Shown: positions 14,691-61,840 of the stretch, in pieces
How the letters are laid out: each line of letters opens with the position of its first letter
Position numbering within the stretch: position 1 is the first letter of the stretch
NCBI GenBank assembly: GCA_021108215.1
Contig: JAIORK010000050.1
Location: 10,498-74,497 of the forward strand
Length of the DNA: 64,000 nt
From: a bacterium
Lineage (GTDB): Bacteria; Oederibacteriota; JAAXVQ01; JAUVAV01
Direction of reading: 5' to 3'
The notes under the pieces: model-generated
Told to the model about the DNA's origin: nothing
The model's database searches: none
What the model saw: only the letters and a program-made list of their open reading frames with translations
Program-made: the position numbers and the translations under genes

Positions 14691-14703
14691 GTATTATCCT
14701 TTT

Positions 14704-14957
14704 GATAAAAATCCACGGGCTTACCCGGCATCCGGCATGCGCCGGACAAGTACGCCGGGCAGGCTGCCCGTGGTATTTTTGTCGGGAGATGTTCGCCCTG
14801 CCCCAAATACGGCAGGATGTCGCACCGATCTGCCGAAATATCAATTCGGTGCTCCACCTTCAATCGACGATATTTTTACTCGCTTCATCGATGGACTTAC
14901 CCGGCATTCGCCGGGCAAGCTGTCCATCGTGTTCGCGCTAGCACGATAACCAGGGTA
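14704..14957 (+). repeat. dispersed REP/MITE-like repeat, long copy (family core cccggcattcgccggg)
   Basis: Head gataaaaatccacgggcttacccggcatccggcatgcgcc and tail ccatcgtgttcgcgctagcacgataac match the copies at 59611-59766 (same orientation) and 61727-61840 (inverted). ORF-track entries 14644..14949 and 14702..14941 lie inside it and are treated as spurious. Confidence 0.7.
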
Positions 14958-15459: not shown

Positions 15460-16064
15460 TTACTTTTTCATCGCCCGAACAGCGATAAAACTGCCTGAAC
15501 CAAATCCCGGTTCCACTCTTTTGTCCTCGCTCTTGCCGGAAAATAAGGCCTGCCGGTAGACAAAACATGAGAATCCGGCTTGGCTCAAATGAGTTTCCAT
15601 TTCCCTGACTGAATAAAAGGTAGCTCGGGAATAAAATTTGCTCTGGGATTTTTTTTCGTTATATTTCTTTCCCAGTTCGCTCTCCCGGTCAATAAATCCG
15701 ATAATCAGGCTTCCTGCCGGTTTAAGTACACGGCCGGCTTCTCCAAACGCTTTATTAATATCATCAAGAAAACAAACCGAGGTCATCATAAGCGCAAAAT
15801 CAAACTCCGCATCACCAAACGGCAGTGCCTCGGCCGCCGCTTCCCGGATCTCAATTCCCCGCTGCCGGGCCAAAGCCGCCATCCGCGCAGCAGGTTCTAC
15901 CCCGACCGCAATCCCCAGCCGGGACGCAAATCTCCCAGCCCAGTCCCCTGACGAGGAATCAATTCACTTAAGGCTGCGAGTTCATCCTCATACGCTGTTT
16001 TATTTTCATCAAACCAGGCATCATATTTTTCAGCATTTTCATTAAAAACCATTATCTTGTCCAT
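15460..16064 (-). pseudogene. class I SAM-dependent methyltransferase (Methyltransf_11/UbiE-like) disrupted by a frameshift and deletion at SAM-binding motif I
   Basis: N-terminal piece MDKIMVFNENAEKYDAWFDENKTAYEDELAALSELIPRQGTGLGDLRPGWGLRSG* (ATG at 16064). The expected LEIGVGTGRFASRLGIAVGVEPAARMAALA continues in the +1 frame and joins the 15460..15882 ORF (ALPFGDAEFDFALMMTSVCFLDDINKAFGEAGRVLKPAGSLIIG). The core of motif I (E-I-G-V-G-T-G) is missing. Confidence 0.6.
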
Positions 16065-20252: not shown

Positions 20253-20294
20253 AGGAACTTGGGAGATCGTACGCGTCTCTTTAATATTTTTTAG

Positions 20295-20372
20295 AAATAA
20301 AAAACCCCGCACCTTTCGGTGCAGGGTTTTTTATTTCTGGCGAGGCCGAGTAGACGAGTTTCGCACCTGGGG
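20295..20372. repeat. R1: bidirectional terminator hairpin plus tRNA-Asp-3'-end-like segment (tggcgaggccgagtagacgagtttc)
   Basis: aaaaaaccccgcacctttcggtgcagggttttttatttctggcgaggccgagtagacgagtttcgcac. The same architecture recurs at 23527-23600 and 26510-26560. Confidence 0.65.
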
Positions 20373-20464
20373 CCGGACCTGTCCGGCGAATGCCGCATGA
20401 AATTGGCGGCTTAGTGTTGTCCCTGCCAAATCTAATGTGTCAGGTAAATACTGTCTCTGTACAT

Positions 20465-22375
20465 TTAATGTACAATTGCAAGCTTAAGTACTTCGAATTT
20501 TTTCCCATTTTTATTTATTTTCGCGATATAAAAGCCCGGGGCCAACTCTTGACTATCCAAGATAATTACCTGTCCGTGCCCTGCTAATAACTCCTCAGTT
20601 ACAGTAATAGTTTTTTCTCCGGACATATTGTAAATCACAATCTCTATACTAGCAGCATTATCCAGATGCATCAAAAATTTAACTTCATCGCTAGCAGGAT
20701 TGGGATAAGCTAATACTTTTTTCCCGTTCAAATCCAACCCAGCCAAAGCATTGATAGGAGTTGTGGTTAAAGTTATAGTCATTGAGGCCTCAATTATAGT
20801 AACTGTAGGACTTGCGGTTGGTGTATTTGTAATGGTTGCTGTAGGTGTAGCTGTCAAAGTAGGCGTATATGTTTGAGTTGCAGTATTAGTATTAGTATTA
20901 GTAACTGTGGGTGCAACATTGGTAACTATCTGGGTATTTGAAAAAACTGATGTATTATTCGTTCCGCCTTTTGCAGTTGCGATTACAGTTTCACCATCTA
21001 AACAACTAGTACCTGGATTAAAATTCCAGAAACCTGAACCATCAGCAGTCGTAGAACCCACAAAACGCAGAGTATCACTACCATCTGTAGTTACAAATAC
21101 TTCAATATAATCATTAGCACCTGAGATGCCGCTGACCACAATGTTTTCTGCAGCATAATTGATCACAGGTGCAGTACCGGGTGCACTACTGCTATCTACA
21201 ATCATATTCGTGCAAGCTACCATGGTATTTCCATTACTCTCATTATTCGTAGAAATTACTACTGACCCATCTCTAAACCAAATAGCACTGCCAGTAGCAC
21301 TCGAAAACAAATTGCCATTACCATTAGTTAATCCAATATAATTATTCGCTCCACCATATATATCAATTGCATAAGCCAGCGCTGTGGTACTACCATCCGG
21401 CAAAATACCAAAACGATTGTTAACCAAGGTATTGTATTGAGCTAAATTGGAAGCATTGATAGCGCTTTGGCGCATAAGTATCCCCTTACCAAAACTATTA
21501 CCTTCGATCCAGATTCCATCACTACCACCTACAAAAATTGACCAATTTCCATTGGAAATCACTGCATCTCCAGTAGCATTGATTGAAAAATAATTGCCTA
21601 CAAACCGATTGTTATCTCCAACATTTGTAGTAGCAATGTAAATACCATTACTAGAATTACCTGCTATTATATTTCCAGCACCAGCTACTAACCCACCAAC
21701 CAATAAATCACTAACCGTTGCATTAATATGTATGCCCGTTGCTTGTACTCCTAAACCAGCGCTCCCATCAATGTTGGTTCCAATATAATTCCCGCAAATA
21801 GAATTCGAATCAGACTGTCCCCATAAATAAATCCCAGCATTAATATTACAAGAAATTACATTTCGTTGCGCTGCAATCAATCCGCCAATAATATTATTTG
21901 GACTGGAACGAAAATATATACCGTTTGAATTACTTTGATCTGTTGCGCTATTATAATCCGTGCCGATCAAACAACCCGTAATAGTTATTCCAGATATTCC
22001 AGTAAAATTTGTCTGAATTGCATTCTCACTATTAATCAGCACTAAATCATTAATAATTGAATTACTACTACCAGTATCAAAATATAATAATGTTACTCCT
22101 GAAGAAGTTCCGGTTGACTGAATTGTGGTTCCGTAACCTTCTATAATCACTTGATCAGATATAGATAAATCAGCAGTCAATGTGATTGGACCAGATACAT
22201 TAAAATCAATTGTATCAGTTACACTTGTGCTGAGATCCGAAAAACCTATAGCTTCGCGCAAGGAACCTGTTCCATCATTTGCTGTACTAGTAACTGTGTA
22301 AGTGAGAGCAGAAACTTCAGAGACAATTAAAATCAATACAAAAATTGATACTACAAATCGAAATACTTTTTTCAT
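20465..22375 (-). CDS. T9SS-secreted beta-helix surface protein (paralog of 5228..8341)
   Basis: Signal peptide, G-N-x-I-G-x-N beta-helix repeats, a T/N/P-rich linker (TVTNTNTNTATQTYTPTLTATPTATITNTPTASPTVT), and a C-terminal T9SS domain (KVLAYPNPASDEVKF...GFYIAKINKNGKKFEVLKLAIVH). Confidence 0.85.
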   Translation of the reverse strand: MKKVFRFVVSIFVLILIVSEVSALTYTVTSTANDGTGSLREAIGFSDLSTSVTDTIDFNVSGPITLTADLSISDQVIIEGYGTTIQSTGTSSGVTLLYFDTGSSNSIINDLVLINSENAIQTNFTGISGITITGCLIGTDYNSATDQSNSNGIYFRSSPNNIIGGLIAAQRNVISCNINAGIYLWGQSDSNSICGNYIGTNIDGSAGLGVQATGIHINATVSDLLVGGLVAGAGNIIAGNSSNGIYIATTNVGDNNRFVGNYFSINATGDAVISNGNWSIFVGGSDGIWIEGNSFGKGILMRQSAINASNLAQYNTLVNNRFGILPDGSTTALAYAIDIYGGANNYIGLTNGNGNLFSSATGSAIWFRDGSVVISTNNESNGNTMVACTNMIVDSSSAPGTAPVINYAAENIVVSGISGANDYIEVFVTTDGSDTLRFVGSTTADGSGFWNFNPGTSCLDGETVIATAKGGTNNTSVFSNTQIVTNVAPTVTNTNTNTATQTYTPTLTATPTATITNTPTASPTVTIIEASMTITLTTTPINALAGLDLNGKKVLAYPNPASDEVKFLMHLDNAASIEIVIYNMSGEKTITVTEELLAGHGQVIILDSQELAPGFYIAKINKNGKKFEVLKLAIVH

Positions 22376-22529
22376 TTATTCACTCCTTAATTTTGCTAAT
22401 TAATATCCATAGGTTAACACCATTTAAATTAAATTACGATTAAAAACATTTCGACCCCTGTTATAATCGGACAAAACTAAATAGTAGAAATCTGCTATGC
22501 TAAGAGCCTCAAAATCAGGAGACAAAACA

Positions 22530-22621
22530 GTGAGCAAAGGCAAAAAATGGACATCGGAAGAAAAAATGGCAGCAGTTATGGAAGGGCTAAAAGGTCGGCC
22601 AGCTCGTGCTAGGGTCGAGTA
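22530..22621 (+). pseudogene. possible IS3-family-like transposase OrfA N-terminal remnant (frameshifted, 30 codons)
   Basis: Frame 1 reads VSKGKKWTSEEK and continues in the -1 frame as MAAVMEGLKGRPARARVE*. Joined across the 5-A run at 22561-22565, KKWTSEEK-AAVMEGLKG resembles the HTH_Tnp_1 N-terminus of IS3-type OrfA. The call is weak and rests on recollection of the family. Confidence 0.25.
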
Positions 22622-23231
22622 GCCCAGAGGCATCTCACTTCCAGGCTCTCACAGAACCGTACTTAAATCTCTCAATTCATACGGCTCTTACTGTTCGGCC
22701 ATTATGATTAACATAATGACTTGCTTCATGACTAAAGTTCCTCCGGTTTTTCAACAGTTGACAATAGTCACCAAGCTGAACAGTTCGGTCCCGCAGCGAA
22801 ACTTCCATTACAGAAGCTTCTTCACTACTACGAACCGATCGCCCCTATATCATGCCTTGGTACTCACAACCTAACACCGTGCTACGATGCTTGGATGGCT
22901 CCCTTTACATCATGATATAGGTTCCCACGTTCTCCGTAAAAGCCCGAACAGAGCTCATGCCACCTCTATGCCGGATGCCGCACAGCCAGTAAACACGTTT
23001 CCGCTATGCTTGTCCCAAGATTCCAGCAACACCTTGGTTTTGACATCATCATTTTGACTTTCGACACTTTATCAGTGGTTCACTTTCGTTCATCTTCTCT
23101 GTTCATACCTCACCTTGACGCTCACCACCATGTCTTTTGAACACAGCAGCTCAAGGCGGTTTGGCACCTGCTCGTGCAAGCCGATGCCGAAGGACCGACC
23201 CCTTCATCTCTTACGAAACTTCGTGGCACAC
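22618..23231 (-). mobile_element. ORF-less group II intron candidate (or 3' intron fragment) with canonical domain V
   Basis: The minus-strand sequence GAGCCGTAT-GAATT-GAGA-GATTT-AA-GTACGGTTC (plus 22653-22686) reproduces the domain V architecture. That comprises a 9-bp lower stem with the AGC triad and G-U pairs, a 2-nt bulge, a 5-bp upper stem and a GNRA loop (compare Ll.LtrB GAGCCGTATACTCCGAGAGGGGTACGTACGGTTCC). A D6-like helix AGCCTGGA...TCTGGGCT followed by AC lies 7 nt downstream. The candidate 5' GTGTG is at 23231. The 1.37-kb region 22376-23742 has no credible ORF. The boundaries are approximate. Confidence 0.6.
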
Positions 23232-23452
23232 TGCCGGAGTTCAAATGTTCAAATAACACTCCACTATTCCTACCATTTCAAAACGCTAATTTCCAGATAA
23301 TAAAATCCGTTCAATCTTCGGATGCTCAAATACCAGCACCAAGCAACGCTTCCCGATTGGAGGTCGCAATTTGCGATCTCCAATTTTCTGTTTCTTGCTT
23401 GGGTAACCAGAACATAAAATCTCCAGCCAGCTCAATTTAAATTGACTCGATA

Positions 23453-23600
23453 ATTCACGAAAATCGAACAATAGAGCAGTTGAGCAGCAGACCGCCCTAA
23501 ACCACGTAGGGTTTAGGGCTTCAGAAATAAAAACCCCAGTCCTTATTGGACTGGGGTTTTTATTTCTGGCGGGGCCGAGTAGACGAGTTTCACAACTGGT
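23453..23600. repeat. R2: roughly 110-nt repeat (acgaacaatagagcagttgagcag...accgccctaaaccacgtagggtttagggcttcag), terminator hairpin and tRNA-Asp-3'-like segment
   Basis: Near-identical to 26451-26560 over about 110 nt. The hairpin is aaaaaccccagtccttattggactggggttttt and the tail is tggcggggccgagtagacgagtttc. Confidence 0.7.
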
Positions 23601-23742
23601 GCCAAGAAAAACCGGCTGCTCAAATTAGCTTTTACATATAGTGATCGTCCATTATTATAGACTGAATTAATTATTTTTATTTTATTTCATTGAAATAAAA
23701 CCTACACAAACCTAAAAAACCGATTTTCTCTCTAAGACTGCA

Positions 23743-25059
23743 TTATCGCCTCTCATGACGTTCGTTATCTTGCGGAGTAAGCGTAATGGTTTTATCATAA
23801 TCCGATAATAACTTCGAAATACCAATAGCTTGGATTTCTTCATTGGCAGCACCATCAAGATTTAATTGAAGCTGACAGTTATCACATTTGCGATCACAAA
23901 ATACCGGTTCATAAGAATCCGGCTCTTTATAGGTTGTAATAACACCTTCAAAATTACGAAGAATAACTTTGTTCGTAGACCAACTGATCAGATATTGAGG
24001 CATAACAGGTATTTTCCCTCCACCTCCAGGAGCATCGATAACGTAAGTAGGCACTGCAAAACCGCTGGTATGACCAATAAGATTTTCCATTATTTCCATA
24101 CCCTTGCCAACCGGTGTACGGAAATGATTTAATCCTTCGGCCAAATCACACTGATATAGATAATAAGGACGCACACGATTCTGTACGAGTTTATGCACTA
24201 ACCGCTTCATTATCCTTGGACAATCATTAACACCAGCTAAAAGTACTGATTGATTACCTAGTGGTATTCCGCTATCAGCCAATTTGGCCAATACTTCTTT
24301 AGAAGAATTGGTGATTTCTCTTGGATGATTAAAGTGCGTGTTTATCCAAAGCGGATGATGTTTTTTCAATATATTTACTAATTCATCGGTAATACGATAA
24401 GGCAAAACGACCGGCATACGTGTCCCTATCCGAATAACTTCTACATGGTCAATAGAACGCAATTCTGTCAAAATCCAATCGAGGTAATCATCACTTAACA
24501 TCAACGGATCACCACCGGAAAGCAATACATCACGCACTTGTGGTGTTCGGCGAATATAATCCAATCCTGCTTGAATGGTTTTACGATCAGGGATAAAATC
24601 AACATCCCCGACCTTTCTCTTTCTGGTGCAATGTCGGCAATACATCGAACACATATTGCTGATCAGAAAAAGAACACGATCAGGGTAACGATGCGTGATA
24701 CCCGGCGCAGGTGAATCTTTGTCTTCAGCCAAAGGATCATTCATGTCATACTGAACCTTTTCCAGTTCGTGAATAGAAGGAAAAGATTGCAAAAAAACAG
24801 GATCATTCTCAAGATCTGCTTTATCAATCAGCGATAAATAATAAGGTGTAATCGAAAGCGGAAATTTTTCCAGTGTTTCTTCCAAATCTTTTCTTTTTTC
24901 AGTGGTAAATCGAACATCCAGTAGCTTTTCAAACAAAGCAACCGAAGTAATGCGATGCTTTAATTGCCAACGCCAATCATTCCACTGATCAGTGGTATTC
25001 GTTTGATCAATCTTATTGGCAATCGTTTCCTGATGATTTGATAAATCTTTATTCGTCAT
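23743..25059 (-). CDS. kamA: lysine 2,3-aminomutase (radical SAM, KamA/AblA)
   Basis: 438 aa with [10 protein letters not shown] (CxxxCxxC) and the KamA-family motifs ([20 protein letters not shown]-terminal CDxxC region). Confidence 0.85.
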
Positions 25060-25069
25060 ATTTCATCCT

Positions 25070-25984
25070 TCATACTATAGTTTTATTCCAGATATTCATT
25101 GATTCCCAACCGGTTGGCATGCGGCAATTATTCACCAAGCGCCCGCCATAGCCATAACCCAATTTTGCAAAAGCAGCATTGATGCCAACAATAGGCGCAC
25201 GACAAAGTGTATAGTAATCAACAATTCCAAATACGTCCTTCAAAACCCGTTCAAGTTCTCCAAGCAAAACCAGCATCAAACCATGTCCACGATAGTCCGG
25301 ATCGGTTGCACAATCTGTTAATTCAGCTGTTTTTCGTCCATGATCGATTTCAGCTGAAGCACAAGCGATCATTTCATTTTTTTCGTTTTCAACAAACAAA
25401 AATAACGAATCCTTATTTTGAATATTTTGAGCAATCGTTGCCGGTTCCAAAGAAGATGGATAATCAGAAAATATTTTTTTGAGTAAGCCGCTCAATCCGG
25501 CGGCATCTTCTGTTTTGGCTATTTGCACATCAAAATCATTTTGTATCCGAGCCGGATCAATCACCGGTTTTGATTGAACAGATGTGACGATCTTATTTTG
25601 TTCACCTGCACGATCATCTTGCCCCCGATGGTCAGACAAAAAAAAAGACCAAATTACCGAGTCAAGATGACTCTTAAAAAAACCATTAATCTTCCCTTCT
25701 TTGACAAAACCTATTTCTTGCCAAGCTTGATCATCCCCCTGCGTGGTGTACACAATAATCTTTGAAAATACCAGATCAGCATTTGCAGAAGATACAGGCG
25801 GAGAACATTGAGCTTGTATATCAGCAATCGTCACACCATATAACTTCACACGCTCATTACGGGGATCAAAAACAGACTCAAAATCTTTTTGTCCAAACCG
25901 AATAGACATTGAAATCGTCTTTTTGCTATTGATTGCTTTTGGTGTACCAAATGCCTCGTGTAAATAATGTTGAAGTTCAAGCAT
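25070..25984 (-). CDS. ablB: GNAT acetyltransferase, beta-lysine N-acetyltransferase (AblB)-like
   Basis: 304 aa with a C-terminal GNAT fold (ACASAEIDHGRKTAELTDCATDPDYRGHGLMLVLLGELE). Its length and its adjacency to kamA match the ablA-ablB pairing used for N-epsilon-acetyl-beta-lysine synthesis. Confidence 0.6.
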   Translation of the reverse strand: MLELQHYLHEAFGTPKAINSKKTISMSIRFGQKDFESVFDPRNERVKLYGVTIADIQAQCSPPVSSANADLVFSKIIVYTTQGDDQAWQEIGFVKEGKINGFFKSHLDSVIWSFFLSDHRGQDDRAGEQNKIVTSVQSKPVIDPARIQNDFDVQIAKTEDAAGLSGLLKKIFSDYPSSLEPATIAQNIQNKDSLFLFVENEKNEMIACASAEIDHGRKTAELTDCATDPDYRGHGLMLVLLGELERVLKDVFGIVDYYTLCRAPIVGINAAFAKLGYGYGGRLVNNCRMPTGWESMNIWNKTIV

Positions 25985-26124: not shown

Positions 26125-26439
26125 ATGGAGCTACAAACTCATAACCCAAACGACGTGTACGCCATGAAAAGTGTATCACAAATAATCCAAAAACAAACTC
26201 ACCAACAGCTCAGAAACCGCACCCGTGAAAGTATCCAACCCGGAACGATCCAGGCTGTCTTTGCCCAAGAAATCAATTCCATTATCGGAGATGCTCTCAA
26301 TGCCCAATTGGTTGCTGAGCGGGATGCCGCCCTGGGCTGCGCTGCTTACGAACGCAAATCCGGGGCATCCCGCAACGGCTTCAAGTCAATCAAAGAAAAC
26401 CGGGGAGGTGTGGAGTTCCTCACGCCCACAATGCCTTAA
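26125..26439 (+). pseudogene. IS256-family transposase N-terminal fragment (truncated at repeat R3)
   Basis: ...LVAERDAALGCAAYERKSGASRNGFKSIKENRGGVEFLTPTMP* matches the IS256/mutator N-terminal signature (AERD..LG...YER...RNGY...G.I.L.VP). The ORF stops 12 nt before R3 begins, and no DDE domain follows. Confidence 0.6.
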
Positions 26440-26450
26440 AAAGCTCAAAA

Positions 26451-26556
26451 ACACGAACAATAGAGCAGTTGAGCAGTAGACCGCCCTAAACCACGTAGGG
26501 TTTAGGGCTTCAGAAATAAAAAACCCCACACCGAAAGGTGCGGGGGTTTTTATTTC
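26451..26556. repeat. R3: copy of the R2 repeat plus bidirectional terminator, immediately 3' of tRNA-Asp
   Basis: acgaacaatagagcagttgagcagtagaccgccctaaaccacgtagggtttagggcttcagaaataaaaaaccccacaccgaaaggtgcgggggtttttatttc. Confidence 0.7.
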
Positions 26557-26633
26557 TGGCGGGGTTGACGAGGCTCGAACTCGCGACCTCCTGCGTGACA
26601 GGCAGGCGCTCTAACCAACTGAGCTACAACCCC
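26557..26633 (-). tRNA. tRNA-Asp (anticodon GTC), CCA encoded
   Basis: The minus-strand sequence GGGGTTGTAGCTCAGTTGGTTAGAGCGCCTGCCTGTCACGCAGGAGGTCGCGAGTTCGAGCCTCGTCAACCCCGCCA folds as a cloverleaf: acceptor GGGGTTG/CAACCCC, anticodon stem CCTGC/GCAGG, loop CTGTCAC, T-loop TTCGAGC. Confidence 0.9.
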
Positions 26634-59610: not shown

Positions 59611-59766
59611 GATAAATATCCACGGTCTTACCCGGCATCCGGCATTCGCCCCCGCATACGCGGGGCAAGCTGGGCAAGTACACCGGGCAGGCTGCCCCGA
59701 CCTGATAAATACTATTTCTTTGGGATGCTATCGCAGCCCATCGTGTTCGCACTGGCACGATAAAAC
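59611..59766 (+). repeat. REP/MITE-like repeat copy (same family as 14704-14957)
   Basis: gataaatatccacggtcttacccggcatccggcattcgcccccgcatacgcggggcaagctgggcaagtacaccgggcaggctg...cccatcgtgttcgcactggcacgataaaac. Confidence 0.7.
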
Positions 59767-61726: not shown

Positions 61727-61840
61727 CTATTTATCGTGCCAGCGCGAACACGATGGACAGCCTGCCCCGCGAACTTGCCCAGCTTGCCCCGCGTATGCGG
61801 TGGCGAATGCCGGGTGCCGGGTAAGCCCGTGGATTTTTAT
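61727..61840 (-). repeat. REP/MITE-like repeat copy in inverted orientation (minimal roughly 115-nt form)
   Basis: Its reverse complement reads gataaaaatccacgggcttacccggcacccggcattcgccaccgcatacgcggggcaagctgggcaagttcgcggggcaggctgtccatcgtgttcgcgctggcacgataa. Confidence 0.7.

Follow-up and report, generated by a model that had tools for sequence, protein, structure and literature searches.

The window analysed here, 64,000 nucleotides of contig JAIORK010000050.1 from a bacterium of the Oederibacteriota (assembly GCA_021108215.1), contains at 22376-23742 an interval occupied only by short open reading frames (ORFs) without family matches. One border of this interval is the start of a 636-aa gene with a type IX secretion system (T9SS) sorting tail, the other the stop codon of a lysine-2,3-aminomutase gene. 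An earlier reading made from the letters alone (hereafter the sequence-only reading) had noticed this 1.37-kb gap, which is real, and had proposed that it carries a group II intron without an ORF. The gap holds a complete group II intron on the minus strand, with all six domains and canonical ends, and the remnant of an IS3-family insertion sequence (IS) lies directly beside it. The positions of the individual features are collected in Table 1.

A scan of the whole window with Rfam gave four matches above the curated thresholds. Two were tRNAs and two were group II intron models, both of which exceed their gathering scores: RF00029, which describes domains V-VI (22689..22614; 57.8 bits against a gathering score of 40; E = 9.6e-9 over the whole window), and RF01999 (group-II-D1D4-2), which falls in domain I (23203..23097; 81 bits against 36; E = 1e-14). 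These two matches lie on the same strand and in the correct order with about 400 nt between them, the spacing expected when no ORF is present (PMC12350094). The 618-nt RNA folds at -230.3 kcal/mol, compared with -181.3 +/- 6.1 kcal/mol for shuffled sequences (z = -8). Furthermore, BLASTN against plasmids returned 433 records with related group II introns, among them an ORF-less relative of 658 nt from a Methylomonas plasmid that was aligned across 92% of the query, and several ORF-carrying relatives in which the similarity ends at the start of the reverse transcriptase (RT) gene.

The boundaries were set by homology with about 60 ORF-less relatives and three ORF-containing ones. At the 5' end, the GTGTG at 23231 that had been offered as a candidate is borne out, as the same GTGTGCCACGA opens the introns of Methylomonas, Clostridium estertheticum and Ca. 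Megaera. The 3' end required revision. The sequence-only reading had described a helix followed by AC as a possible domain VI, with the intron ending near 22618; the helix is real, although it forms the inner part of domain VI only, and the intron continues 6 nt further, through ...GGGCU-A-CUCGAC, to stop at 22614. Since the roughly 60 relatives end in ...CUACUCGAC, with unrelated sequence beyond and flanks that diverge exactly at this point, the A of the supposed terminal AC is the bulged branch-point adenosine (22620). The 3' CTACTCGAC of the window intron is likewise common to the relatives, and with the end moved to 22614 the length becomes 618 nt rather than the 614 nt first estimated.

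The relatives used for structural comparison came from a scan of GTDB (one genome per species) with a pattern requiring a short distance between a domain III motif and domain V, which returned at least 120 stretches. Of the introns at these loci, 62 had clear ends (618-721 nt) and were cut out; together with the window copy they yielded 34 non-redundant representatives, which were aligned. RNAalifold predicted 144 pairs in this alignment, 107 of them with compensatory changes, and the window copy forms 146 of the 151 family-consensus pairs, with two broken. A minimum free energy fold of the window RNA alone recovers the same six domains, such that the domain architecture is found in the single sequence and is backed by covariation in its relatives. 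Domain V (minus strand, 22687..22654) reads GAGCCGUAU-GAAUU-GAGA-GAUUU-AA-GUACGGUUC and possesses every feature that had been named for it (the AGC triad and two G.U pairs in the lower stem, a 2-nt bulge, a 5-bp upper stem and a GAGA loop), its coordinates alone being shifted by one base from the 22653-22686 first given; the AA bulge is also seen in relatives. In domain VI the branch-point adenosine at 22620 stands 7 nt from the 3' splice site, and the intron termini are GUGUG and ..GAC. Domain I has a short 5' section and lacks one hairpin in the RF01999 match; damaging deletions were considered as the cause and rejected, because several relatives (L008, L044, L048 and L066) have the same short form.

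As a separate observation on domain V, normally the part of a group II intron whose length varies least, a multi-copy intron of Saprospiraceae (L014:6826-7500; also L020, L031, L039 and others) carries an extra hairpin of about 20 nt at the domain V bulge, where the sequence reads ...CAC AGCCUGUCCCGAAAAUCGGGA UACGGUUC. Its many near-identical copies suggest that this variant is functional.

Table 1. Features of the intron locus, in window coordinates; intron nucleotides are counted from the 5' splice site
Feature	Position	Strand	Intron nt	Basis or remark
Complete ORF-less group II intron, 618 nt, 5' GUGUG ... CUACUCGAC 3'	22614..23231	minus		Rfam, ends of relatives, fold
Domain I	22925..23226	minus	6-307	closing helix CCACG/CGUGG; contains the RF01999 match; compensatory pairs
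Domain II	22841..22924	minus	308-391	consensus pairs, covariation
Domain III	22785..22838	minus	394-447	consensus pairs, covariation
8-nt block UUCGCUGC in place of GGAGCGAA	22793..22800	minus	432-439	domain III internal loop
Domain IV stub, 95 nt	22690..22784	minus	448-542	read from the sequence, by comparison with ORF-carrying relatives
Domain V, 34 nt	22654..22687	minus	545-578	AGC triad, AA bulge, GAGA loop
Domain VI	22616..22651	minus	about 582-615	bulged branch-point A at 22620
EBS1 (UGCUGGA)	23022..23028	minus		terminal loop of domain I hairpin 23037..23015
EBS2 (UCAAA)	23053..23057	minus		same alignment position as EBS2 of relatives
5' exon target	23232..23245	minus		IBS2 UUUGA (23245-23241), spacer AC, IBS1 UCCGGCA (23238-23232)
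Predicted ligated-exon junction ...CUCCGGCA|CCUAGCAC...	23232|22613	minus		
IS3-family left end, promoter-like site and first 39 orfA codons (ATG 22497)	22446..22613	plus		3' exon
Promoter-like site of the IS remnant	22440-22467			
Strong terminator hairpin, with the intron downstream of it	23565-23525			
636-aa gene with T9SS sorting tail	20465..22375	minus		start at 22375, one border of the gap
Lysine-2,3-aminomutase gene	23743..25059	minus		stop at 23743, the other border of the gap

Key to understanding how the intron came to this site is the match between its exon-binding sites (EBS) and the adjoining intron-binding sites (IBS) of the 5' exon. EBS1 can form 7 bp with the final 7 nt of the exon, and EBS2 can form 5 bp with an IBS2 that lies two bases above IBS1, the spacing that is usual in the family. 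In a permutation test run on the alignment columns, EBS1 sequences across the family were found to covary with their own exons (mean cognate run of 5.59, against 2.76 for permuted pairs with a maximum of 3.44 in 500 permutations), and none of 31 non-cognate exons reaches 7 bp with the EBS1 of the window. EBS2 also covaries across the family (cognate 5.22, permuted 3.86), though its match in the window is weak evidence when taken alone, as 5 of the 31 foreign exons also reach 5 bp. The pairing of both elements with the adjacent exon implies that the site was recognised by the intron's own RNA, and a site matched in this manner is the signature of insertion through reverse splicing. Behaviour of the class C type, in which introns target terminators, was rejected, given the distance of about 300 nt to the upstream terminator and the IIB/class D-like character of the RNA.

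The intron encodes no protein of its own. Its domain IV stub contains, in order, a GUCAAC...GGAGGA motif, an AUG followed by 13 codons (from 22727 down), a stop codon, a small hairpin and a closing stem (CUGUUCA/UGAACAG), and in ORF-carrying relatives the RT ORF begins directly after the same GGAGGA motif. A tblastn search of the 64-kb window with the RT of a relative found no RT gene (best E = 0.23), and a database look-up with a 56-aa ORF internal to the intron found no record. The absence of an RT or maturase ORF noted by the sequence-only reading was thus upheld, and lacking an intron-encoded protein (IEP) in domain IV, the element is an ORF-less derivative rather than an autonomous retroelement. 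The IEPs of its ORF-carrying relatives (C. estertheticum, Ca. Megaera, Shigella plasmids and Bradyrhizobium) are 414-446 aa long and have no endonuclease domain. That of C. estertheticum is 52-53% identical both to the Megaera IEP and to the 419-aa IEP of an intron on Sinorhizobium meliloti pSymB, which interrupts a transposase-like gene and which we take to be RmInt1 or a close relative. IEPs of the RmInt1 type are 419 aa long, belong to class D and carry the C-terminal motif LX3AX3PXLF[V/A]HW (PMC4615759). This motif is exact in the S. meliloti protein (LRKLARENPGLFVHW), shows one substitution each in the C. estertheticum and Megaera proteins, and stands at, or nearly at, the C-terminal end of these IEPs. 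By its RNA relatedness to such IEP-carrying introns, the window RNA is placed in the class D/IIB3 (RmInt1-like) lineage.

In domain III the window copy departs from its relatives. An 8-nt block of the internal loop reads UUCGCUGC, where the family, including a relative of 89% identity described below, reads GGAGCGAA, and five of these eight positions are at least 90% conserved. As UUCGCUGC is the reverse complement of GGAGCGAA at seven of its eight positions, a micro-inversion is the simplest origin of the change. Three pairs are intact in the 33 other representatives; each of them is broken in exactly one sequence of the alignment, which we take to be the window copy, and in the predicted fold the block pairs with nt 404-411, converting a conserved purine-rich internal loop into an 8-bp helix. 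Because domain III acts as a catalytic effector in IIB introns, such a change would be likely to reduce or abolish splicing. Domains V and VI show only wobble or largely compensatory changes. The intron lies upstream of the gene for the protein with the T9SS tail and no coding sequence depends on its removal, so that nothing selects for splicing in this intergenic position; in combination with the domain III change, this indicates that the window copy is most likely stranded, a weakened or dead element rather than an active ribozyme.

The alternative that best survives these observations is that the copy is fully functional, with accurate splicing and continuing mobilisation by an IEP whose gene lies elsewhere in the genome. 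Domains V and VI, both ends and the EBS/IBS pairings are all intact, most changes in domains V and VI are of the wobble or compensatory kind, the tally of departures from conserved positions is no worse than in a relative that is clearly multi-copy, and three independent assemblies carry the intron unchanged. However, the domain III block stands in place of a motif that at least 90% of relatives conserve and breaks pairs that the other 33 representatives keep (taking the one aberrant sequence to be the window copy), no second copy or IEP was seen in the window or in the GTDB and JGI pattern scans, and the intergenic position provides no selection for splicing. We therefore consider full activity doubtful, and a stranded copy the better description.

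At the 3' exon the sequence-only reading had recognised, on the opposite strand, a remnant of an IS3-type OrfA of 30 codons with a frameshift; the remnant and its strand were correctly identified, but it comprises 39 codons, is not frameshifted and stops at the intron. About 170 bp of the IS are left, with orfA antisense to the intron and ending at it. When the exons were joined in silico and the product was compared with a large protein collection, one match was found (P0001, 106 aa, PF01527 HTH_Tnp_1; E = 2.8e-12), which is 57% identical over 98% of the query and runs gapless through the junction. The contig encoding P0001 (L245; JGI 3300040954) carries an intact IS3-type gene pair, orfA and an orfB with an rve domain, and 22446-22606 of the window has 87.6% DNA identity to the left end and orfA start of this IS. 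Beyond the junction, on the 5'-exon side, the match is reduced to CGGCA (5 nt), a continuing reading frame and a faint similarity. Pfam and NCBIfam did not score the orfA remnant, either alone or joined across the intron; tblastn of the remnant against plasmids gave only matches of E = 1-9, of which the weak ones to annotated IS3 transposases span the junction; and tblastn within the 64-kb window found neither the C-terminus of orfA nor orfB, the right end of the IS being absent.

These data are most economically read as insertion of the intron into orfA in antisense orientation, with later loss or exchange of the IS on its upstream side. It is also conceivable that the juxtaposition is secondary, an IS3 fragment having been joined to the 3' end of the intron by recombination or deletion rather than the intron having homed into orfA. 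Consistent with this, the strong similarity to the IS (87.6%) ends at or near the junction, the upstream side offers only 5-8 matching bases and a weak in-frame resemblance, and in L245 the same type of IS has inserted into the intron, so that the two elements meet in more than one way. We nevertheless judge it improbable: the end of the IS fragment coincides precisely with the 3' splice site, the last 5 nt of the 5' exon (CGGCA) are those with which the IS would continue according to L245, the joined exons are in frame through the junction that the weak tblastn matches to IS3 transposases also span, and homing into IS elements is a known behaviour of class D introns (PMC4615759).

L245, which comes from another metagenome, further contains, at 184-423, the final 240 nt of an intron that has 89% identity to that of the window. 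This fragment adjoins the left end of the IS, its 5' side having been cut off by the IS (423-1700) near the domain II/III boundary, and it shares the domain IV stub of the window intron in stem, motif, hairpin and end points while having a different 3' exon. Finding the same ORF-less stub at two different sites indicates that the ORF was lost before the lineage reached either of them, and a lineage that moved while ORF-less would presumably have used a protein supplied in trans. The two loci also present a case of reciprocal nesting, in which the window intron lies inside an IS3-type orfA while in L245 the same IS type (87.6%) truncates the same intron lineage (89%).

Further relatives illustrate the mobility of such elements. 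One Saprospiraceae chromosome (OZ252053.1) carries more than 20 ORF-less loci among the matches listed, and in the eight Saprospiraceae loci read in detail the flanks differ while an IBS1-like ACAYC is kept. A full-length class D intron lies within 8 kb of two ORF-less copies in L053, and in L069 (1-2500) an ORF-less copy is nested in a full-length class D intron, upstream of its IEP. Head-to-tail tandem ORF-less copies occur in L041 and L078, where the 3' end of one intron is directly followed by the GTGCG or GTGTG of the next, and intron-sized contigs were found in the cultured isolates L010, L084 and L106, the names of the latter two giving a coverage of about 180-210x. Mobilisation in trans, as proposed by the sequence-only reading, is in this way supported indirectly, by the 89% copy at another site and by ORF-less relatives that are multi-copy beside class D introns. 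In addition, the deltaORF ribozyme of RmInt2 has been mobilised experimentally by the RmInt1 IEP (PMC4615759), and by analogy a supply of IEP in trans to the ORF-less lineage is plausible.

Insertion of a full-length autonomous intron at this site, followed by deletion of its ORF in place and involving no mobilisation in trans, might explain why the stub keeps the GGAGGA site, the AUG and 13 codons, much like the scar of an ORF deletion. We hold this to be very unlikely, however, as the same stub in the L245 fragment (89% identity, different 3' exon) places the deletion before both insertions, and whole sub-lineages of relatives share their own types of stub across genera. Finally, that the element is a chance palindrome resembling domain V, or only the 3' fragment of an intron that the sequence-only reading had allowed for, can be dismissed for practical purposes, since two independent Rfam models exceed their gathering scores, the element aligns at full length with relatives whose fold includes 107 covarying pairs, and it retains a conserved 5' end and EBS/IBS pairing.

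Taken as a whole, we consider it probable that the window carries a complete ORF-less class D/IIB3 intron which arrived by means of an IEP supplied in trans and which is most likely a stranded copy. Under this scenario, the ORF would have been lost in the lineage before its movement to this site; the RNA would have entered by reverse splicing and then been reverse transcribed, the reverse transcriptase/maturase being provided in trans by a full-length class D relative elsewhere in the cell; and most of the IS on the 5'-exon side would have been lost after insertion. Class D proteins have no endonuclease, and priming takes place from nascent lagging-strand DNA. GC skew is negative on the plus strand through all 64 kb, where nearly all genes are on the minus strand, which places the intron in the G-rich strand. 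If, as we infer, this strand is the lagging-strand template, then the intron has the orientation that endonuclease-less class D introns favour (PMC4615759).

Several observations weigh against this scenario. Membership in class D rests on relatives, as the window intron carries no protein. For this organism, no RT gene was found in the 64-kb window and no second copy in the pattern scans. Among the matches listed in the GTDB and JGI scans none is closer than about 67% at full length, with the exception of the L245 fragment; in JGI metagenomes the exact domain V pattern gave 0 matches and a relaxed pattern gave 116 loci, none more than about 70% identical beyond the D5-D6 region. The 5' exon beyond 5-8 nt upstream of the intron is without significant similarity to the IS, so that insertion into an intact IS calls for a later deletion or recombination. 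With regard to decay, the window copy deviates at 17 of 194 conserved columns, which is high but within the range of the family, and the clearly mobile Saprospiraceae intron deviates at 15.

The intron, sitting in an IS remnant downstream of tRNA-like debris, explains most of the 1.37-kb gap, and this pile-up of selfish elements has no evident bearing on the neighbouring genes. The search for an empty site found three metagenome contigs, with the neighbouring kamA, that are identical across the gap, and no intron-less allele. The tRNA-like debris belongs to a set of three direct copies on the minus strand (23519-23640, 26509-26633 and 20290-20374) that each consist of a tRNA 3' end with CCA and a terminator hairpin. 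One of these modules belongs to a genuine tRNA-Asp (26633..26557), the remaining two come after degenerate tRNA-like sequence called by neither ARAGORN nor Rfam, and the first two copies in the order given above share a 78-nt stretch with a hairpin (23460-23537 and 26449-26526, 95% identical). The modules may be what is left of att sites where islands integrated at tRNA-Asp, or tRNA duplicates that have decayed. Upstream of the intron 5' end, at a distance of about 125 nt, 23355-23385 contains a perfect 14-bp palindrome (GATTGGAGGTCGCAATTTGCGATCTCCAATT) with a T-rich run after it on the plus strand, and resembles a terminator for plus-strand transcripts.

Other features of the window were noted in passing. 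Abutting the 78-nt repeat beside tRNA-Asp is a 104-aa ORF (26125-26439, plus strand) that by eye resembles the N-terminus of an IS256-type transposase (…ERDAALG…YERK…RNGF…) and had no meaningful match in Pfam or NCBIfam. An 86-nt inverted repeat (59612-59697 and 61755-61840, 91% complementary) encloses about 2 kb and possibly represents the ends of another mobile element, with related repeat pieces at 14700-14769 and 14907-14949. Near 15934 the window lacks 19 nt found in the near-identical metagenome contigs L001 and L002; the difference falls within what is in these contigs a 207-aa methyltransferase gene, and the window ORFs look split (15460..15882 and 15638..16045). The lysine-2,3-aminomutase gene (radical SAM and LAM_C domains) stands beside a gene for a GNAT acetyltransferase (23743-25984 in all), a pair that we take to be genes of N-epsilon-acetyl-beta-lysine synthesis (ablAB-like). 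Together with two proteins with T9SS tails in the window, this pair suggests a salt-adapted host from the Bacteroidota/FCB group.

Relatives of the window intron are numerous. The at least 120 loci with a short domain IV (L007-L126) are distributed across Bacteroidota, Rhodothermales, Rhodohalobacter, Gammaproteobacteria (many of them Methylococcales), Desulfobacterota, Nitrospirota and Nitrospinota, and also Chlamydiota, Planctomycetota (Scalindua), Zetaproteobacteria, Bdellovibrionota, Spirochaetota, Lachnospiraceae and Methanosarcina; as the pattern fixed the length of domain IV and the listing reached at least 120, this count is a lead rather than a census. These loci raise the idea, for which we see even prospects of being right or wrong, of a large, phylum-spanning population of class D-like ORF-less introns of about 620-720 nt which, in the manner of miniature inverted-repeat transposable elements (MITEs), persist and multiply without an ORF by parasitising the proteins of their full-length relatives. 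If true, ORF-less bacterial introns would be neither rare nor short-lived, contrary to a 2015 review in which they were judged rare (PMC4424553). The number and spread of similar introns in environmental genomes are mildly surprising, and suggest that in environmental bacteria such non-autonomous introns are far more frequent than earlier publications allow. Pipelines that pair RF00029 with D1-D4 models already detect ORF-less introns, and their expansion in some genomes has been noted (PMC8919778), so that the present data extend known facts rather than overturn them. The rarity implied by the sequence-only reading is not supported, ORF-less bacterial group II introns being a described category; the locus does illustrate how such introns are missed by protein-based annotation.

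Within this set, a group of loci (L016, L035, L064 (Rhodothermales OZ253559.1), L038, L045 and L049) was observed in which unrelated sequence takes the place of the 3' strand of domain V after ...CUUUCAC. In L016 at least, a further D1-D4 module (RF02003) follows, and about 650 nt downstream in L016, L035, L064 and L038 there is an RT belonging to another class. The arrangement has the appearance of a twintron, with a second intron inserted in domain V, and it recurs at several sites.

Compared with known systems, the window intron is closest to the RmInt1/class D (IIB3) introns, with which it shares the RNA type, a 5' GUGUGC.., a domain V beginning GAGCCGUAU.. and a similar domain VI and 3' end. 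The RF01999 module of domain I is also present in three ORF-carrying or ORF-less plasmid relatives, and domains I-III of the Shigella, Bradyrhizobium, Clostridium and Megaera introns align with the window at about 66-70%, whereas the BLASTN match to an RmInt1-like locus is limited to about 85 nt of domain I. The habit of sitting in IS elements is likewise shared, RmInt1 itself residing in ISRm2011-2 (PMC4615759). Unlike introns of the RmInt1 type, that of the window has no IEP, has a domain IV of 95 nt rather than about 1.3 kb, and lacks two hairpins, a small one after the 5' end and a peripheral one of the RF01999 model. Its IS partner similarly matches the IS3 family (orfA with HTH_Tnp_1, orfB with rve) in the left end and 39 orfA codons, and differs from an intact IS3 element in being reduced to about 170 bp without orfB, right end or frameshift site.

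Natural ORF-less introns of bacteria and archaea (the copies of Thermosynechococcus and Trichodesmium that a related IEP serves, those of Methanosarcina, and C.te.I1) resemble the window intron in being ribozymes without an IEP. The best-studied of them belong to the chloroplast-like (CL) lineage or interrupt housekeeping genes, while the window intron is class D-like and intergenic or IS-borne, with no helper found in the window. ORF-less introns are about 600 nt long (PMC12350094), and their host genomes usually also contain related introns whose IEPs act in trans (PMC4424553, PMC12584367). Engineered deltaORF donors of RmInt1 and RmInt2 also combine a class D ribozyme and a trimmed domain IV with a separate class D IEP (PMC4615759); these are laboratory constructs, whereas the deletion in the window is natural and shares its end points with the 89% relative. 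For those who engineer vectors of the RmInt1 type, naturally compact class D ribozymes whose exon-binding sites are intact could be of interest. In its class D-like lineage, its EBS/IBS match and its IS context, the window intron is as expected for an element of a known kind.

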